Origin: Oscillospiraceae bacterium
Lineage (GTDB): Bacteria > Bacillota > Clostridia > Oscillospirales > CAG-272
DNA: 50,754 bases
Direction: 5' to 3'
Assembly: GCA_015064245.1 (NCBI GenBank)
Contig: SVSQ01000003.1
Coordinates: forward strand, 1 to 50,754
Shown here: positions 4,725-38,630 of the stretch, piece by piece
How the letters are laid out: every line of letters starts with the position of its first letter
Position numbering within the stretch: the stretch's first letter is position 1
Notes under the pieces: generated by a model
Told to the model about the DNA's origin: nothing
Databases searched by the model: none
Seen by the model: the letters and a program-made list of their open reading frames with translations, nothing else
Translations under genes and position numbers: made by a program

Positions 4725-5215
4725 GGGATACCGTGTACCTTGTGCGAACATCTGCCGGTATCCCCATCGAATATTTCTTTTCGACGCGGTCGAAACTTTT
4801 TTCTAACGAAAAAAGCCCGAAATATTCGCCAGCCTTGGAGGAAATTTAAGATACCGTGTACCTTGTGCGAACATCTGCTGGTATCCCCGCTTAGCGGAAT
4901 TTTAAATAACAAGCTGTGTAAAGTAATTATTTCCTACCTTGGGTAGTTGCGGGAGCAACTCGGCAGTATTTCATGTACGAAAAACCGCGAGCCTGCTTAT
5001 GCGAGCGCGTTTCAGCGAGCCGTTCCCAATCTACCACGGTCTTTCTTTCTTCTTTTTGCGAGCATTTTTCTTCTTTCTTTCTCGAAAGAAGGAAGAAAAA
5101 CGCGAAATCTATATAAAAAGAAATATTAAATACAAATAATAAAACCTACATTAAATATCCGTCTTAAAAAAAGTAACTTTAATAGAAAAATTATAAAATT
5201 TACTCAAAATAACCT
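4725..5215 (+). repeat. Mosaic intergenic repeat C-D-C-B-slot-A-tail
   Basis: gataccgtgtaccttgtgcgaacatctgc.ggtatcccc twice (4725-4765, 4850-4888); D 4768-4828; gttgcgggagcaac 4946-4959; triplex module 5040-5100; 4940-5120 nearly identical to 26135-26320. Confidence 0.95.
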
Positions 5216-6796: not shown

Positions 6797-7891
6797 ATGT
6801 CAAATTACGATATTTACGTTTTCACCTTATGTCTTTTGGTGTTCGTAATGCTTACCGGACTTCTCGGAACGATGCTTGTCGTTCTGCTGAAGCAGGGATT
6901 CAAGCTGATAAGAGCGGGACTTGAGGATGAAAGAATAAAGAAAGAATATATTAAAGAAGCGGAAACAAAGCGCGCTGTGACTATTATTTCTGCCGTTCTG
7001 ACCGTTATTATGCTTATTGCTATTTTCTCGGCGTTTGCGGTGTCGATGTACGTTCAGTTCGTCGGCGACGAGCCCAAGGGCGGCGTAGCCATTCCGAAGG
7101 TAGTACTGTCGGACTCCATGTCCAAAAAACGTGAGTCTAACGATTATCTTGAAAAGCACGGACTGGACGATCAATTTCAGACCTTTGACCTGATATTCAT
7201 TCGCGAGCTGCCCGGAGAATTCGAGCTGGAGCTTTACGATATCGTCGTATACGAATACGAGGATAAGCTGATAATCCACAGAATCATCGGTATCGAAGAG
7301 CCCAACGAAAAGCATCCCGATTGCCGCCACTTTTTGTTGCGCGGTGACGCGGCTAAGTTCTCGGATGAGTTTCCTGTGCTGTACGAGCAGATGAAGGCGA
7401 TCTACGAAGGTCAGAGAATACCGTTTGTCGGAAGCTTTTTCGCGTTCATGCAGTCTCCTGCGGGATATCTGTGTCTGCTTTTGATCGTTTTTGCGGTTAT
7501 CGCAACTCCTATCACGGAGAAGAAGCTTTGGGAGGCAAAGCTTGCCCGTCTGCGCGAGATAGGCTTTATCCCTGCCGAGCCCGAGCCTACCGAGGCTGAG
7601 GCAACAGAGGAAACTGCTGAAAATGATGAAAATGATGAGGAAGTTATCGAAGTCGCAAGCGACGTGGAGCCCGAAGTAACGGAACCTGTCGAAGATGCAA
7701 GCGACGCGGAGCCCGAAGTAACGGAATCCGTCGAAGACGCAAGCGATGCGGAGACCGAAGTAACGGAACCTGCCGAAGATGCAAGCGAGTCCGAACCCGA
7801 CGCAAAAGAGTCCGCAGAAGGCTCAAATGATGCTGACACCGACGAGTCTGAAGACCCCGTCGACGGGCAAAGGCAGCAGAATGGAGATTAA
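6797..7891 (+). CDS. sipW: Signal peptidase I, SipW/ER-type (S26B-like), with acidic repeat tail
   Basis: VVLSDSM (Ser), DIVVY, IIHRII (His), LRGDA, IPFVG then TM helix. Confidence 0.75.
   Translation: MSNYDIYVFTLCLLVFVMLTGLLGTMLVVLLKQGFKLIRAGLEDERIKKEYIKEAETKRAVTIISAVLTVIMLIAIFSAFAVSMYVQFVGDEPKGGVAIPKVVLSDSMSKKRESNDYLEKHGLDDQFQTFDLIFIRELPGEFELELYDIVVYEYEDKLIIHRIIGIEEPNEKHPDCRHFLLRGDAAKFSDEFPVLYEQMKAIYEGQRIPFVGSFFAFMQSPAGYLCLLLIVFAVIATPITEKKLWEAKLARLREIGFIPAEPEPTEAEATEETAENDENDEEVIEVASDVEPEVTEPVEDASDAEPEVTESVEDASDAETEVTEPAEDASESEPDAKESAEGSNDADTDESEDPVDGQRQQNGD
7655..7800 (+). repeat. 42-bp coding tandem repeat, about 3.5 copies (ASDxEPEVTExxED)
   Basis: gcaagcga unit starts at 7655, 7697, 7739, 7781. 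Confidence 0.9.
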
Positions 7892-22399: not shown

Positions 22400-22757
22400 T
22401 TTAATATTTTTTTCCGCATCTTTCTTCCTTTCTTTCGGGAAAGAAAGAAGAAAGACGCTCCAGAAAGAAGAAAGAAAGCCCGTGGTATATTTTTGACGGC
22501 TCGCTGAAAATCCTCGCGTAACACACTCCGTGTGCTCGGATTTTGGGTACATGAAATACTGCCGAGTTGCTCCCGCAACACACTAAAGCAGGGAAAAATA
22601 TTTGTACAGCTTGTTACTTAAATTTCCGCAAAGGCTGGCGAATATTTCGGGCTTTTTTCGTTAGAAAAAAGTTTCGACTGTGTCGAAAAGAAATATTCGA
22701 GGGTGATACCCGTATATGTTCACACAAGGTACACGGTATCACTGCTACCGCAACACC
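22400..22757 (-). repeat. Mosaic repeat C-D-B-slot-A
   Basis: Reverse complement matches modules at 4725-5100; D 22639-22699; triplex module 22419-22478. Confidence 0.95.
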
Positions 22758-25919: not shown

Positions 25920-26390
25920 ATTCTCGTTAAAAGAGAAAAACGCGCTTTTTGAAGGGGAAAACGGTCGCTTTTGAAAAAGCTCCGCAAAACTTCTTTTCCG
26001 CCGACACCAGAAGGCATCGGCGGAAAAGAATTCGTATGGTGTTTCCTTCGGAAATCGTCCGCGCTCCCCATTCAAGCAAGAGCACACATCATCTCACCCA
26101 CAAACAAGGAAATCCTACACTTAATTTCTTGCTTTAGGTAGTTGCGGGAGCAACTCGGCAGTATTTCATGTGCGAAAAACCGCGAGCCTGCTTATGCGAG
26201 CGCGTTTCGGCGAGCCGTTAAAAATCTACCACGGTCTTTCTTTCTTCTTTTTGCGAGCATTTATCTTCTTTCTTTCTCGAAAGAAGGAAGAAAAACGCGA
26301 AATCTATATAAAAAGAAATTTAATAGAAAAATAACAAAATTTACTCAAATAAAAAAATCTACCCAAACAAAAAAACTTACTCAAAAAATC
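25920..26390 (+). repeat. Mosaic repeat G-B-slot-A-tail
   Basis: G hairpin 25991-26030; gttgcgggagcaac at 26141; triplex module 26235-26295. Confidence 0.95.
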
Positions 26391-34517: not shown

Positions 34518-35522
34518 TCATCGGCTTTTTCTTTTACAGATCCTGAAAATGCCGATGCCGATAAAAATAACGCTGATCAGCAAAAGCGATATCAGGCATA
34601 TCATGTAGATATTTCCTTCCAAATACTGCTGCCAATCGTTAAAGTTCACTTGATATGAGCTCCCGTTCTCGCCGAACAGTATATCCACCGCGTATTCCGA
34701 GAAATAATAGATCACCGTGCTCAAAGCGATGCAAATACCGGTTTTTATAAAAGCATCGAAGCGAAGGGCGGAGATGACGGCGCAAAGGATCACGGGAGTG
34801 AAGGCGTAGCAGGTGATCAGCAACGATGAGCCGAGCATAAAGGAATGTCGGGCGCTGATATTCAACAGCAGCAAAACGGTCAGAATACAGCTTGCAGTAA
34901 AGGAGATCACAAACTTAAAGCGGGATATGCGGGTTTCAGACAGTAAGAGGGGAACAAACAAAAGATCGTAACCTATCAAAATGCCGATGCAGGCAGTCAA
35001 GAACCAAGATAAGTCACCGGTATATACCGCGCAGGCGAACAAGAGCAAACAGATGGAGAGGTACGTTGAAATGCAAAAAGCAAGCAGTCTCTTCGATCTG
35101 AAAAAATAGGTCACCGTGGGCACGAACGTGTAGGCGCAGATAAGCGCGGTCAATACGATAAAGAACCAGGACAGAGTTCGGCTCACGGCGAGATTGCAGA
35201 CAAAACAGGTCAGGAGCGCGACGGCGTAGGATACGGTCGGTATCCAAAACCACGCTCCGCGGATCGCGCGGAACTTCCGCGCTTCGCCCTTGATCTTCCT
35301 TGAATCCGTATCGGTCGAGGCGGTGATGAGTTCGTGTTCGCTGATATCAAGGACACGGCAAATATCGGAGATCATGGTAATGTCGGGATAGGAGACACCC
35401 CGCTCCCACTTGCTTACCGCGCCCTCGGTAACGAACAGCATTTCCGCCAGGTCCTTTTGAGAATAGTTTTTTTCGGTTCGTTTGTTTTTTATGAACGAAC
35501 CGAATGTTTTTTTATCAGTCAT
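34518..35522 (-). CDS. XRE-family HTH regulator fused to multi-TM domain
   Basis: SQKDLAEMLFVTEGAVSKWERGVSYPD then about 8 TM helices; own TTGACA-N17-TATAAT at 35596-35624. Confidence 0.88.
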   Translation of the reverse strand: MTDKKTFGSFIKNKRTEKNYSQKDLAEMLFVTEGAVSKWERGVSYPDITMISDICRVLDISEHELITASTDTDSRKIKGEARKFRAIRGAWFWIPTVSYAVALLTCFVCNLAVSRTLSWFFIVLTALICAYTFVPTVTYFFRSKRLLAFCISTYLSICLLLFACAVYTGDLSWFLTACIGILIGYDLLFVPLLLSETRISRFKFVISFTASCILTVLLLLNISARHSFMLGSSLLITCYAFTPVILCAVISALRFDAFIKTGICIALSTVIYYFSEYAVDILFGENGSSYQVNFNDWQQYLEGNIYMICLISLLLISVIFIGIGIFRICKRKSR

Positions 35523-35631
35523 ATTTGCGACCGTTCCTTTCTTACAGAAAAAGGCGTGTTTGAAAGCTTGTTTTAAAGCTTGACCGCTCGATGTTATTAT
35601 ACGGCAAGCAAGGCGGATTGTCAATGGACTG

Positions 35632-35781
35632 TTAAGCCACCCCGCATTTTTTCGATATATCTGATCGGAATTCGGGTTTGTGGGTTAGATGATTTCCCCC
35701 GTCAAAGGCTGATCTGACCGAAAGAGCGCAAACGGATCGCAATACTGTTTTACGAGTACAAATCAATAACAATCTTTTCAT
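35632..35781 (-). pseudogene. Possible truncated cassette gene (49 aa, MKRLLLIC...)
   Basis: ATG follows a strong promoter; the ORF runs into a module-G fragment (catctaacccacaaac). Confidence 0.3.
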
Positions 35782-35804
35782 AGTCGCATCTCGCTTTTGG
35801 TTAC

Positions 35805-35833
35805 ATTATAGCATGAATTTTATTATTTGTAAA
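35805..35833 (-). promoter_or_regulatory. Sigma-A promoter abutting left hairpin ladder
   Basis: TTTACA-N17-TATAAT with extended TG. Confidence 0.75.
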
Positions 35834-35835
35834 GA

Positions 35836-36019
35836 GTGATGTATCGGCTACGCCGAAGTGATGTTATGGCTTCGCCATAGTGATATATTGCTCCTTCGTC
35901 GCAAAGTGATGTGATGTGTTCCTTACTCACGCGCGAAGCGCGCATCACGTTCCGCGTAAGCGGAACACTTAGTTAAAAAAGCCTAATTTGTCTGGTAGAC
36001 AAATTAGGCTTTTTTGTTG
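35836..36019 (-). repeat. Hairpin-ladder element, copy 1 (GTGATG/CATCAC plus terminator)
   Basis: GTGAT at 35836, 35858, 35880, 35906, 35911 separated by small hairpins; CATCAC 35943; aaaaaagcctaatttgtct-ggt-agacaaattaggcttttt. Confidence 0.85.
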
Positions 36020-36113
36020 CCTTAAACGAGCGAAAAGGTGTCTGAACAAGGGTAATTGCGAACAAAAGGTGTCCGGATTTTATTTTTCTGCATCGCGAAA
36101 AATTGGTATTTGT

Positions 36114-36773
36114 TTAAATCGTTTCGGAAATCCATTTCTTCGCCCAAGAAAACAATGTTTCGGACATCGAATTGAAATCTACCGTTCCGCCATTTTTCAA
36201 GATCAAAAAGGTGTCAACGATAATCCTTTCATGATTCGAAACAACATCTCGTAATTCACTTTGATGTTTTACATATTGGCCGATTTGCTTAAAAGCGATA
36301 GCCTGAACAACAAAAGACGCGGATTTATACAATCCTTTCAAAATATCCTCGCTCTTTTCGTGCACCATATTGTGAACGCATCCGTGATAAATATTGCAAG
36401 CACCGATTTTGATTGCTCTGTTAACGGCGGTTTCATCAACAACTTTAACCACCTCATCAAGGCTTCCCTTGATTGGTGTAGTATCGTGGCAAAATTGAAA
36501 AAGATCGGAAGGCTCCCAATCAAGAAGCTCATTCTTTCCTGAAACAAAACCGCAAATCAGTTCTCTGTTGGGAAGGGTATCTAACATTGTATTGTATTTT
36601 TGAATGTCAGTGACGGACAGTTGATTGAGTATAACGACAACATCAATATCGCTTGTTTCGGTTGCTTCACCGCGACCGTAGCTGCCCTGTAATCCCACAA
36701 ACCATACGCGCTCTCCGAAAGTATCGTTTAAGATATTAAGAAATCTATTTATCCAGTCGTTAATATCAATCAT
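36114..36773 (-). CDS. Nucleotidyltransferase (Pol-beta superfamily) domain protein
   Basis: GLQGSYGRGEATETSDIDVVV; start overlaps upstream stop (ATGA); AT-rich codon usage. Confidence 0.88.
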   Translation of the reverse strand: MIDINDWINRFLNILNDTFGERVWFVGLQGSYGRGEATETSDIDVVVILNQLSVTDIQKYNTMLDTLPNRELICGFVSGKNELLDWEPSDLFQFCHDTTPIKGSLDEVVKVVDETAVNRAIKIGACNIYHGCVHNMVHEKSEDILKGLYKSASFVVQAIAFKQIGQYVKHQSELRDVVSNHERIIVDTFLILKNGGTVDFNSMSETLFSWAKKWISETI

Positions 36774-37123
36774 TTGGTGTTCTCCTTTGCTGTTTTGCAA
36801 GATGCAATCAGCATAACTCGCAACGAAGTACATTTGGAGGATAGCGTTTTGAATGTCTGCTCATCGATATATTTTGTGCGATAAAGCAATTCAAGCCAAT
36901 ACCCCGTTTCGCTTGCTTCTTTGAGTGCAATTTCAAATTTTGATATAAAATCCTTAGTACCTTGTGCGTATTGCGCTTCGTGAATATTCGCACCAATCGA
37001 GGTGCCACTTCTGCCAATTTGATTCGCGATAATCGTTTCGTGATTTGCCTTTAAATATTTAACGAGGTTTATGATGTCAACAGAAAAGTCCATTGATAAT
37101 TCTACAAGTTTGTTTTCTTTCAT
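36770..37123 (-). CDS. Four-helix-bundle protein (23S rRNA IVP-like family)
   Basis: NQIGRSGTSIGANIHEAQY, DFISKFEIALKEASETGYWLELL; GGAGG RBS. Confidence 0.92.
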   Translation of the reverse strand: MKENKLVELSMDFSVDIINLVKYLKANHETIIANQIGRSGTSIGANIHEAQYAQGTKDFISKFEIALKEASETGYWLELLYRTKYIDEQTFKTLSSKCTSLRVMLIASCKTAKENTK

Positions 37124-37144
37124 GGCGCACCTCCTGTTGTCGTT

Positions 37145-37173
37145 ATTATATCACAATTTTGGTTGTTTGTCAA
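37145..37173 (-). promoter_or_regulatory. Sigma-A promoter abutting right hairpin ladder
   Basis: TTGACA-N17-TATAAT with extended TG. Confidence 0.85.
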
Positions 37174-37387
37174 ATGATGCATCGTCTGCGGCGATATGAT
37201 GTTTTTCGCTACGCTCAAAATGATGTTGCTCGTTTCACTCGCAATGATGCGATGTTTGCCTCATGTGCCCGCAGGCACACATCATTCGCGTCAGCGTTCA
37301 TCATTAGGCGAAGCCGTCATCATTTGCCGAAGGCAAACATCATTCAAAAAACGCACCTTTGTCGGTAGACAAAAGTGCGTTTTTTGT
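37174..37387 (-). repeat. Hairpin-ladder element, copy 2 (ATGATG x4 / CATCAT x4 plus terminator), fused to tRNA-Tyr 3' end
   Basis: ATGATG 37174, 37196, 37220, 37244; CATCAT 37280, 37299, 37318, 37338; aaaaaacgcacctttgtc-ggta-gacaaaagtgcgtttttt. Confidence 0.88.
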
Positions 37388-37472
37388 TGGTGGGAGCGGG
37401 TGGATTCGGACCACCGAAGTCAGTGACAACAGATTTACAGTCTGCCCCCTTTGGCCGCTCGGGAACGCTCCC
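37388..37472 (-). tRNA. tRNA-Tyr(GTA)
   Basis: gggagcg acceptor, cagactGTAaatctg anticodon arm, long variable arm, CCA end. Confidence 0.96.
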
Positions 37473-37475
37473 GTA

Positions 37476-37550
37476 TGGAGCTGGTGATCGGAGTCGAACC
37501 AACAACCTGCTGATTACAAATCAGCTGCTCTGCCATTGAGCCACACCAGC
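37476..37550 (-). tRNA. tRNA-Thr(TGT)
   Basis: gctggtg acceptor, gctgattTGTaatcagc, GTTCGAC T-loop, CCA end. Confidence 0.96.
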
Positions 37551-37573
37551 ATCGTATTCAATTGACGAGTGAT

Positions 37574-37602
37574 ATTATAACATATTTTTTTTCGTTTGTC
37601 AA
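37574..37602 (-). promoter_or_regulatory. Sigma-A promoter of tRNA-Thr/Tyr operon
   Basis: TTGACA-N17-TATAAT with extended TG. Confidence 0.85.
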
Positions 37603-37796
37603 TAGGTTTTTGAAAAATAATTTTAGTTTTTTGTTTTTTGTTCAAAAGGGGCGTTTTTTTGCGTACGGATTTACTCGCGCGAGACGTGAAAATGATTGAC
37701 ATACGCTTCGCGGTGTGATATAATGCTCTCAGAAGCATTTTTATCGGATTGCAAAATCAAAATGCGGTTCGGCTCAAGAAAGGAACGGTCATAATA

Positions 37797-38630
37797 ATGA
37801 AGACAATAAAGATACTCAGAGCAGTAGTGATCTTATTGCTTGCGGTCGTGGTAGGTCTGTACGTTTACGAGGTCGCGGCGCTCAAAAAGGATCCTACGGA
37901 AAATCTTATGCGGATCGCGATAATAATCGCGGGACTGGTCATAACCTTGATCCGTCTCAGAGTCTCCCGTCCCCGCAGGTCGCTGGATTATTACGAGGCG
38001 CAATATCAGAAGGTGCTCAGAAACGCCTTTGCCGACTCGGTATTCGACCGCAAGAAGCTTCTTTGCGCAGTCCGTCTTTATAATGAAGATAACTTCCGCA
38101 AGGCCGCGAAGTATCTGGTCCAGCTTCAGCCGAAATGCCGTCAGCCCGACGATTATTACGCCGTCGGTATGTTCCTTGCGCTGATATATACCGATCTCAG
38201 TCTTTACGATCAGGCTGTGATGATGTATCACCATCTGATCGGTATGAACCTTGTCTCCACCACCCTTTACGGCAATCTGGGTTACGTCTATTCGATGATG
38301 GGCGATGACGAAAAGACTCTTAGCTGTTACTCCGCGGCTCTTGATCTGGACCCCAAAAACGCTTACGCTCAGCACAATATCGCCAACTTCTATTTCGATA
38401 AGCGCGATTTCGAGAACGCCATCGAAAACGCAAAGAAGGCTTTGGAGCTTGACAGCAAGCTTCGTCCCGCCGCGACGCTTCTCGCGATAATCTATTCTCT
38501 GGAGGAAAACAAGGAGGAGGCGGAAAGATATTTCCACCTTGCCATCACCTGCGGCGAAAAGCCCGATCATCTGAGAGCGGTTATAGAGGAGTACCGAAAG
38601 GGCGCGGCAGAGGCGGAAGAGGAAGAGTAA
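37797..38630 (+). CDS. Membrane-anchored tetratricopeptide repeat protein
   Basis: Two N-terminal TM helices; YGNLGYVY...ALDLDPKNAYAQHNIA TPR pattern. Confidence 0.88.
   Translation: MKTIKILRAVVILLLAVVVGLYVYEVAALKKDPTENLMRIAIIIAGLVITLIRLRVSRPRRSLDYYEAQYQKVLRNAFADSVFDRKKLLCAVRLYNEDNFRKAAKYLVQLQPKCRQPDDYYAVGMFLALIYTDLSLYDQAVMMYHHLIGMNLVSTTLYGNLGYVYSMMGDDEKTLSCYSAALDLDPKNAYAQHNIANFYFDKRDFENAIENAKKALELDSKLRPAATLLAIIYSLEENKEEAERYFHLAITCGEKPDHLRAVIEEYRKGAAEAEEEE

Follow-up and report, generated by a model that had tools for sequence, protein, structure and literature searches.

The window analysed here, 50,754 nucleotides (nt) of contig SVSQ01000003.1 from an Oscillospiraceae bacterium, carries directly behind a tRNA-Tyr gene an array of short repeated boxes and hairpins, which is bounded by a terminator on one side and, on the other, by a promoter-like site ahead of a gene for an Avd-like four-helix-bundle protein. 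The genome to which the window belongs (G000 in our set; 2.15 Mb in 116 contigs) is 79.6% complete. On the minus strand, that of the tRNA genes, the order after the CCA end of tRNA-Tyr is terminator, four ATGATG-hairpin units, centre, four hairpin-CATCAT units and promoter; this arrangement is hereafter called the head. The genes and features concerned are the following.

37476..37550, minus strand: tRNA-Thr(tgt), first gene of the tRNA operon, with a promoter (12/12) at 37602->37574
37388..37472, minus strand: tRNA-Tyr(gta); the element begins directly past its 3' CCA
37345..37386, both strands: bidirectional intrinsic terminator hairpin T, called by a scan tool; 19 pairs, A-run before and T-run after
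37280..37343, minus strand: tRNA-proximal arm, four ATGATG boxes (CATCAT on the plus strand), each followed by a hairpin
37323-37337, 37306-37317 and 37287-37296, minus strand: hairpins H1, H2 and H3 of the tRNA-proximal arm
37332..37341, minus strand: 5' strand of predicted helix P0, formed by the end of box 1 and the 5' half of hairpin 1; partner 37251-37260
37250..37279, minus strand: centre, with hairpin H4 (37264-37279) and the 3' strand of P0 (37251-37260)
37174..37249, minus strand: promoter-proximal arm, four hairpins, each followed by CATCAT (ATGATG on the plus strand)
37145..37173, minus strand: promoter-like site TTGACA-17-TATAAT, 12/12, with TG before the -10; abuts the last box
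36770..37123, minus strand: gene for a 117-aa four-helix-bundle protein, Avd-like (PF05635, 97.3 bits; TIGR02436, 105.9 bits)

Read on the plus strand, ATGATG boxes start at 37174, 37196, 37220 and 37244 (spacing 22, 24 and 24 nt) and CATCAT boxes at 37280, 37299, 37318 and 37338 (spacing 19, 19 and 20 nt), which confirms the four-plus-four array reported in a preliminary description of this DNA. Three boxes separated by 13-19 nt are matched four times in the window, each time at the element, and in 0 of 100 dinucleotide-preserving shuffles. The spacers had been described as mostly self-complementary. The three palindromes named there are present (gtgcc-cgca-ggcac within 37264-37279, ggc-gaa-gcc within 37306-37317 and tttgcc-gaa-ggcaaa at 37323-37337), but others are weak, with the spacers 37227-37243 and 37202-37220 closing only through tandem G.A mismatches. 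The loops of the promoter-proximal arm are GAA, GTA and GCA, and two of its stems contain tandem G.A mismatches. The interval originally delimited, 37174..37387, also includes the terminator hairpin (37345-37386), the inner part of which (TTTGTC-TACC-GACAAA) is common to other heads, so that the terminator belongs to the repeated element. The promoter-like site (37173-37145) is directed at the four-helix-bundle gene. Compared with shuffles, the 221-nt stretch folds far better than expected, as RNA or DNA and on either strand tested (z -6.8 for RNA, -6.7 and -6.1); the RNA minimum-energy fold joins the box-1 region to the box-8 region, and the ensemble is diffuse.

The best Rfam match apart from tRNA is Gut-1 (RF01706), with 29.4 bits for a second array in the window, copy 1 (35834-35917, plus strand; see below), and 21.8 bits for one arm of the array behind tRNA-Tyr, copy 2 (37312-37382, minus strand). 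In the cmscan alignments, the three hairpins and linkers of copy 1 correspond to positions 1-77 of the model, and one arm of copy 2 aligns likewise. Both copies have the tandem hairpins with a GUGAAAU-like linker that characterize the family, and both score below its gathering threshold of 50 bits, so we file them as a variant or relative of Gut-1 and not as strict members. All intermediates between the window type and Gut-1 exist, and the window arrays are, as judged from sequence, a diverged variant of this catalogued orphan motif. For the preliminary description, a match to an already described repeat family of known function would have counted as a refutation; a described family was indeed found, although one without known function. 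In the window's own genome there are 26 Gut-1 matches at E<=1, 4 of which pass the cut-off (51.2-63.3 bits); many consist of a plus-strand match followed within ~20 nt by a minus-strand match, i.e., of convergent arms, and a GTGATAT-type subfamily is located at many contig ends. Gut-1 matches were found in 19 of 31 relatives, with 0-30 per genome within the window's genus, and, in an even sample of the order, in 68 of 151 genomes and 44 of 97 genera. A scan of a larger collection for three ATGATG boxes was unspecific, returning at least 120 stretches with organism labels only and hence no distribution. The 80 matches listed come mostly from unrelated phyla and are probably chance matches in coding sequences. 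Seven loci labelled Clostridia were inspected, of which four are heads and three are chance matches (L079, L105 and L151), and only these four heads show convergent matches on both strands among the 80 listed. Heads of the ATGATG type are also present in metagenome-assembled genomes (MAGs) labelled Oscillospiraceae, Faecousia and Clostridia. Gut-1 itself was reported, in the parts of the original paper that concern it, as a likely non-coding RNA known from human-gut metagenomes only, with 43 representatives and no function, and with a consensus of three hairpins, CUUCG loops and GUGAAAU linkers (GUGAUAU in some seed sequences; Weinberg et al. 2010, PMC2864571). In the main-text passages on Gut-1 and the supplement tables of that paper, we found neither a two-armed head with terminator, long-range helix and promoter behind a tRNA gene nor an asymmetry of loops and mismatches.

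Which of the possible structures is conserved was judged from eight heads with ATGATG-type boxes, namely that of the window, one from the relative G011 and six from the relative G003 (alignment A1). In the local hairpins and the terminator, 12 pairs are changed on both sides, a number that 0 of 500 shuffles reach, and slid controls for the local hairpins drop to ~40-45% pairing. The palindromic spacers are thus kept by compensatory change, as had been proposed. Four G003 copies (L067, L069, L070 and L071) have a nested 8-bp hairpin inserted in the loop of hairpin 1 (tttgcc...ggcaaa), which shows compensatory change of its own. The same test did not bear out the second structure that had been suggested, a ladder of stacked four-way junctions in which the boxes of the two arms pair with each other: its 24 pairs include no double-sided change and 4 non-standard cells without compensation, although the boxes, like P0, hardly vary among the eight homologues, so that covariation counts for ladder and P0 are uninformative within the ATGATG subfamily. 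Between elements the box type does vary, and the two arms always match. Types seen with complementary arms include ATGATG, GTGAAG, ATGAAG, ATGAAAT, ATGATAT, GTGATAT, AGTTATA, ATGTAATC, GCTAAAT and GGTAAAT. To this extent the covariation of boxes claimed earlier stands, but it does not extend to individual rungs; as all boxes of one element are alike, matching arms are equally expected from a single reader of one motif in both orientations.

The pairing between distant parts of the head that emerges from the comparison is P0, in which the end of box 1 and the 5' half of hairpin 1 are complementary to the segment of the centre just before the first reverse box (37332-37341 with 37251-37260 in the window). 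Of 18 heads compared for P0 (10-16 bp), 0 of 500 shuffles of the centre reach it in 12 and no more than 3 of 500 in 15, and it beats the unit-2 control in 16 of the 18. In L056 and L052, the script chose box complementarity, and a P0 match of 10-12 nt is visible by eye; L015 has no P0 match. The sequence of P0 differs wholly between families, with nine versions found by script and two by eye, this support being a between-family comparison by custom script and not a test of the R-scape type. In L021, box 1 and the P0 partner are of A/T type and all other boxes of G/C type. Taken together, the comparison shows a covarying, predicted long-range helix between unit 1 and the centre. In its RNA minimum-energy fold, the window element lacks P0, box 1 being closed on box 8. 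The 3' strand of P0 (37251-37260) also repeats, in direct orientation, the 3' half of hairpin 1, and a partial reverse box comes after it. In L035 (G021:C16), units 2-4 of the tRNA side are missing and the junction lies exactly between the direct repeats (hairpin 1 3' half and centre), where recombination between them would place it. Given this duplication in the centre and the deletion-like state of L035, a recombinational origin of P0 is an alternative to a constraint on folding.

The loops and mismatches of the hairpins differ between the two strands. On the Rfam strand, the 53 arrays of a cleaned set (157 units with 828 Watson-Crick stem pairs) have 68 C(TNC)G and 35 C(TNNC)G loops, and their stem mismatches are C.T (12), A.C (6), A.G (2), G.T (2) and C.C (2). 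On the opposite strand, the loops read as GNA triloops or GNNA tetraloops, and the mismatches become G.A or G.T pairs (18 versus 4). G.U pairs do not predominate on the Rfam strand (2 G.T versus 6 A.C; 41 versus 43 in the uncleaned set). This asymmetry points to the hairpin-CATCAT strand as the one that folds, opposite to that of Rfam. In the promoter-side arm this is the minus strand, in the tRNA-side arm the plus strand. DNA forms exceptionally stable C-GNA-G triloops, GCGAAGC being an example, and with moderate confidence the excess of triloops over tetraloops favours folding as DNA. The 16-29 nt spacing of the boxes does not keep phase with a B-form helix. The promoter scan revealed no promoter-like site on the opposite strand of the head, and since the array is enclosed by the 19-pair terminator and a promoter pointing away from it, no mapped promoter transcribes it. 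Four public RNA runs, available as unstranded contigs that may include DNA and that cover 0.05-0.07 of the stretch, have metatranscriptome contig depths of hundreds to thousands over the tRNAs; in run X1 the terminator is covered at a depth of 90, the tRNA-side arm at 32 and the part beyond at <3. One exact 123-nt contig spans tRNA-Tyr into the terminator.

The head recurs in the relatives. When 28 PF05635 loci were oriented on the strand of the PF05635 gene and compared for layout, 13 displayed the same succession of same-strand tRNA, terminator, array or heptads, promoter-like site and PF05635 gene, and in 10 of these 13, 250-300 nt separate the end of the tRNA from the start codon. The tRNAs at these loci include Tyr, Thr, Trp, Leu, Arg, Lys, Gln, Cys and Met, and the same head type is found behind different tRNAs. 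In the relative G021, seven two-armed heads lie behind tRNA genes, a probable transfer-messenger RNA (tmRNA) gene and one unidentified stable RNA; its terminators are nearly identical behind different tRNAs, which again marks the terminator as part of the repeat. The comparison shows that the architecture predicted for the element recurs behind many different tRNAs. At the tRNA-Tyr locus of other members of the window's genus, G001, G007 and G008 have a plain terminator without array, G006 and G003 carry heads of other box types, and G011 has an orthologous ATGATG head that drives an unrelated small gene, after which comes a second head with its first ~66 nt identical to those of the first. 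On contig 169 of G003, two complete cassettes (tail, terminator, array, promoter and gene) stand in tandem. Taken together, these patterns show that a cassette-like module has dispersed and undergoes turnover. Because the genes downstream of tRNA-Thr/Tyr differ between genus members, cassette ends and target duplications are undefinable by empty-site comparison. One ATGATG-type head in a Faecousia sp. MAG (L143, ~300-640) has no obvious cargo gene and lies between imperfect copies of the final ~25 nt of the neighbouring tRNA-Ala, resembling an att duplication.

Two further kinds of array were observed. In hairpin-less heads upstream of PF05635 genes (L050 in G015, L051 in G009 and L062 in G002), the tRNA terminator is followed by four contiguous TTTCACT-type heptads and by a stretch complementary to the terminator's 5' half; next come inverted AGTGAAn heptads, three or four in number, then another hairpin and the promoter. 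The PF05635 proteins of these loci group in a single clade. One-armed arrays of a second subfamily, with their hairpin order in common, are numerous in G021 (L024, G021:C18, 1949-10277; also L023, L025, L028 and L030), mixed with other GC-rich palindromic repeats, e.g., ggctcccctgtgcaaggggagc. The REP-associated tyrosine (RAYT)/Y1 transposase (PF01797; REP, repetitive extragenic palindromic), considered as a possible mobilizer and rejected, gave 0 matches in the carriers G000, G021 and G030, which are 79.6%, 98% and 85% complete and have 17-35 Gut-1 matches each; PF01797 was found in G020 and G025 and weakly in G014.

The gene most often associated with the arrays is that of the four-helix-bundle protein. 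Besides its matches to PF05635 (97.3 bits) and to TIGR02436, 'four helix bundle protein' (105.9 bits), the 117-aa protein of the window matches PDB 2rld_A, a five-chain entry, at E 1.9e-29, and the Avd-related fold that had been attributed to it is upheld. PF05635 is described in a passage of PMC10053308 as resembling Avd, a protein of diversity-generating retroelements (DGRs). By a crude detector, an array stands directly upstream of 18 of 29 PF05635 genes in the relatives. Of the 151 genomes, 59 have both Gut-1 and PF05635 and 70 have neither, Gut-1 occurring alone in 9 and PF05635 alone in 13 (odds ratio 35, Fisher p 3e-19, uncorrected for relatedness). The clades with support in a tree built from 26 PF05635 proteins track box type and not host family: ATGAAAT is shared between families f1 and f8, xxTAAAT between f3 and f4 and the heptad type between two genera, and a nearly identical pair of GTGAAG proteins comes from f1 and f3. 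The agreement between clades and boxes would fit cognate recognition. The association of the element with the adjacent four-helix-bundle gene is statistically strong and not obligatory.

Downstream of this gene the window continues with a second gene, a tail and a second, incomplete head.

36114..36833 as listed, minus strand: open reading frame (ORF) with a nucleotidyltransferase domain (PF01909)
36016..36113, minus strand: cassette tail with two GACACCTTTT repeats (36033-36042 and 36064-36073)
35975..36015, both strands: second bidirectional terminator hairpin, 19-nt arms, 100% complementary, core TTTGTC-TACCA-GACAAA; heads copy 1
35834..35968, minus strand: copy 1, a second head with truncated tRNA-side arm; best Gut-1 match 29.4 bits, on the plus strand
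35805..35833, minus strand: promoter-like site TTTACA-17-TATAAT, 11/12; abuts copy 1

The true start of the nucleotidyltransferase gene is likely the ATG at 36773-36771, 60 nt downstream of the listed ORF start. The stop codon TGA of the four-helix-bundle gene overlaps this ATG (ATGA, 36770-36773), which suggests translational coupling of the two genes. Tails like that of the window sit ahead of the next terminator in G003 and G011. Copy 1 had been described (35836-35966) as having GTGATG and CATCAC boxes; it is real and has these boxes, but not a four-plus-four ladder. Its plus strand carries four boxes at intervals of 22-26 nt, of which three are GTGATG and one is GTGATA, and a further GTGATG that is adjacent and overlapping, with a single CATCAC at 35943-35948, and the minus-strand order is a hairpin (35949-35968), one GTGATG and four units of the hairpin-CATCAC type. 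The genes flanking the element encode the nucleotidyltransferase, a helix-turn-helix protein and a tetratricopeptide-repeat protein. PADLOC gave no match for the four-helix-bundle protein and weak nucleotidyltransferase matches for the product of the neighbouring gene. There is no rRNA match in 35000-38000, where the PF05635 gene begins 264 nt downstream of tRNA-Tyr, and none of the 5 window ORFs scanned has a reverse transcriptase (RT) domain, the rest of the genome not having been searched for one.

The reading that we favour, and to which we give an even chance, is that the interval is the DNA-level non-coding head of a tRNA-adjacent cassette, the hairpins of which would expose the 7-nt boxes as a protein-binding track, probably for the Avd-like protein acting on the promoter and/or on placement of the cassette. 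Such a cassette head would comprise its own bidirectional terminator, two arms and a consensus promoter driving the Avd-like and nucleotidyltransferase genes. The short hairpins (C-GNA-G triloops and GNNA tetraloops, with G.A and G.T tolerated) would fold out from the hairpin-CATCAT strand and align the conserved boxes side by side as a repeated binding track. A sequence-specific protein, most likely the Avd-like protein of the cassette itself, would bind this track and regulate the adjoining promoter and/or label the cassette for insertion at a specific site behind tRNA genes, in which case the crossover would be expected near CCA/ACAAAAAA. With two opposed arms, one arm could fold whichever strand becomes exposed. 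A more specific proposal, which we consider rather improbable as a whole, holds that Gut-1 would not be a small RNA and would be the folded-DNA recognition head of undescribed, promoter-bearing cassettes homing to tRNA/tmRNA 3' ends in gut Clostridia, where an Avd-like protein of the pentamer type would read the row of boxes (four boxes plus the partial box of P0) and direct insertion and/or the promoter.

Several observations weigh against the cassette-head reading. No copy of the tRNA-Tyr 3' end (last 16-30 nt) was found within 9.4 kb downstream in the window at <=25% mismatch on the tRNA strand and <=20% on the other, and no recombinase was identified. The link to PF05635 is not obligatory: by the crude detector, 10 of 29 PF05635 loci have no array; the orthologous head of G011 precedes an unrelated small gene; the seven tRNA-linked heads of G021 are followed by other ORFs without likeness to the PF05635 gene, no family scan of these ORFs having been made; some G003 cassettes carry other genes; and GTGATAT and ATGATAT, the box types most abundant in G000 and G021, have no cognate PF05635 gene in the same assemblies. 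The agreement between PF05635 clades and box types also fits simple co-inheritance of linked head and gene. Both GNRA-like loops and sheared G.A pairs form stably in RNA as well, which leaves the excess of GNA triloops as the basis for preferring DNA. Finally, RNA-library contigs of low depth cover parts of the array, falling away from the tRNA, which may represent read-through RNA or DNA carry-over, and several one-armed arrays in the Rfam orientation lie directly before a ribosome-binding site (RBS) and ATG, i.e., in the position of an mRNA leader.

These last observations belong to the explanation that we regard as unlikely but as the strongest competitor, a structured RNA, be it the Gut-1 small RNA, a 3' trailer produced by read-through from the tRNA, or an mRNA leader, the single-stranded 7-mers of which would sponge or recruit an RNA-binding protein. 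Gut-1 is filed as a small RNA in Rfam and rated a likely RNA in the corresponding section of PMC2864571, the hairpins covary, the RNA fold energy is low (z -6.8), four one-armed G021 arrays in the Rfam orientation directly precede RBS and ATG, and RNA-library contigs lie on the terminator and the tRNA-side arm, including the 123-nt contig that bridges tRNA-Tyr and terminator. However, the arrays of heads lie between a strong terminator and an outward promoter, with none promoter-like on the opposite strand; G.U pairs are not in excess on the Rfam strand; the GNA/GNNA loops and G.A pairs appear on the anti-Rfam strand, which switches between the arms; and the contigs are unstranded and possibly derived from DNA, array depth being 1-2 orders of magnitude under that of the tRNAs. 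We find it doubtful, and less credible than an RNA, that the arrays are a selfish repeat mobilized in trans, similar to bacterial interspersed mosaic elements (BIMEs) built of REP sequences or to miniature inverted-repeat transposable elements, with the proximity to tRNA and PF05635 genes resulting from insertion preference or hitch-hiking. Copies are unevenly spread, with 0 to ~35 matches per genome even inside one genus, many copies are at contig ends, copies have their hairpin order in common and differ by indels of whole units, and the opposed orientation within clusters resembles that of BIMEs. Against such a repeat speak the failure to find PF01797 in G000, G021 and G030 despite 17-35 matches each, and the conserved, non-random head architecture: terminator, P0, similar arms and a promoter at a set distance from the tRNA are retained across families with unrelated hairpins, which points to a function beyond spread.

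A plain double-stranded operator or centromere-like array, in which 7-bp boxes would be read in B-form DNA and the palindromes would be incidental, has in our view only a slim chance of being correct. The array abuts the -35 hexamer, and the hairpin-less variant has contiguous heptads, first direct and then inverted, upstream of the same kind of gene; but the box spacing is unphased with the helix, the spacer palindromes are maintained by compensatory change, and the loop types are strand-specific and tied to box orientation, whereas a duplex reading needs neither loops nor palindromes. Least probable of all is the ladder, in which the four boxes of each arm would pair within one RNA or DNA strand into rungs of 6-7 bp, with hairpins on both sides and stacked four-way junctions. 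The arm boxes are complementary across at least 9 box types; arm sizes are similar, with exactly 4+4 boxes in 7 of 19 heads by k-mer count, 3-5 boxes in both arms in 8 of the other 12 and one arm with only 2 in the remaining 4; and the RNA minimum-energy fold joins the box-1 and box-8 regions. Yet besides the lack of double-sided changes reported above and the equal fit of one protein reading one motif in both orientations, box 1 is engaged in P0 instead; the arms are unequal in copy 1, L020 and L035; one-armed arrays are common; and a variant exists that has boxes and no hairpins. L022, the only informative mixed element, has a non-complementary order of A/G versus C/T boxes, and L021 and L036 are each left with an A.C rung, both thin evidence.

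The cassette head has partial counterparts among known systems. With Gut-1 it shares tandem short hairpins, C(UUC)G-type loops, a conserved 7-nt linker and occurrence in gut bacteria, but the window linker is AUGAUG or GUGAUG instead of GUGAAAU (in some cases GUGAUAU), the Rfam model comprises one arm of three hairpins whereas the window has a two-armed head with terminator, P0 and promoter behind a tRNA, and the loop and mismatch asymmetry of the window type points to the strand opposite to that of Rfam. REP/BIME sequences, served by RAYT in enterobacteria and pseudomonads, are short intergenic palindromes with a conserved flanking word, multi-copy and patchy, in alternating clusters and often behind terminators. 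The window type resembles them in being a multi-copy intergenic palindrome with a conserved flanking word and clusters of opposed orientation, and differs in its shorter units (4-7 bp stems) of free sequence, its fixed 4+4 head with promoter and the failure to find RAYT in three carriers. Integrons hold small exchangeable, promoterless cassettes in tandem at attI, with an attC site that is conserved in structure and read strand-specifically by IntI as folded single-stranded DNA. Tandem small gene cassettes and a cis site conserved by structure and not by sequence are common to both; window-type cassettes, however, have their own terminator and promoter-like sites, eight mini-hairpins where attC has one imperfect hairpin, and a position behind tRNA genes and not at attI, and no integrase was identified, no integrase search having been run.

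Omega/ParG-type repressors bind arrays of 5'-WATCACW-3' heptads upstream of promoters, and the box ACATCAY/ATATCAC presumably resembles these heptads. Both arrays have 7-bp boxes, direct and inverted, directly upstream of a promoter, and those of the hairpin-less variant are contiguous; in contrast, window boxes are separated by hairpins of 9-20 nt, and the neighbour is a four-helix bundle, with no ribbon-helix-helix gene. Integrative elements that target tRNA genes differ in that the window has no direct repeat of the tRNA-Tyr 3' end at its far side (9.4 kb), although L143 has such repeats of tRNA-Ala. Avd works with nucleic acid, and the 117-aa protein belongs to the same four-helix-bundle family, PF05635, as Avd and the proteins of 23S rRNA intervening sequences. 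Unlike in DGRs, no RT was found among the 5 scanned window ORFs and no template/variable repeat in the cassette, and unlike in intervening sequences, the PF05635 gene lies behind a tRNA and not inside 23S rRNA. We know of no function for stand-alone PF05635 members. To our knowledge, few bacterial proteins that have no function outside DGRs are as common as those of PF05635/TIGR02436. Small insertions associated with stable-RNA genes are known to encode members of the family.

In the literature on Gut-1, PF05635/TIGR02436, Avd with tRNA cassettes and REP-like repeats of Oscillospiraceae, we found no description of the module. The Gut-1 family itself is already known, having been listed in Rfam since 2010 as an orphan RNA of gut metagenomes only; new here are the diverged ATGATG variant, P0, the mismatch asymmetry, the co-occurrence in 151 genomes, the clade-box agreement and the tandem cassettes with tails. 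Gut-1 is thereby placed in assembled genomes of one order, in a fixed, dispersed module behind tRNA genes, and is tied to PF05635 both physically and across the 151 genomes, and its strand and RNA label in Rfam may be wrong. If it is the folded-DNA binding site of a mobile cassette, this would represent a new way to move and insulate single genes in abundant gut bacteria, and if the Avd-like protein reads the row of boxes, this would be the first function for stand-alone PF05635 proteins, including those of 23S rRNA intervening sequences.

Two repeats of other kinds were also recorded in the window. A tandem repeat at 7647-7842 has a period of 42/84 nt and 80-88% matches. An unrelated interspersed repeat of ~70-135 nt, present on contig C18 of the same genome (221-355) and with >50 blastn matches across many contigs, has copies in the window at 22534-22658, 4890-4998, 26125-26193 and other positions.

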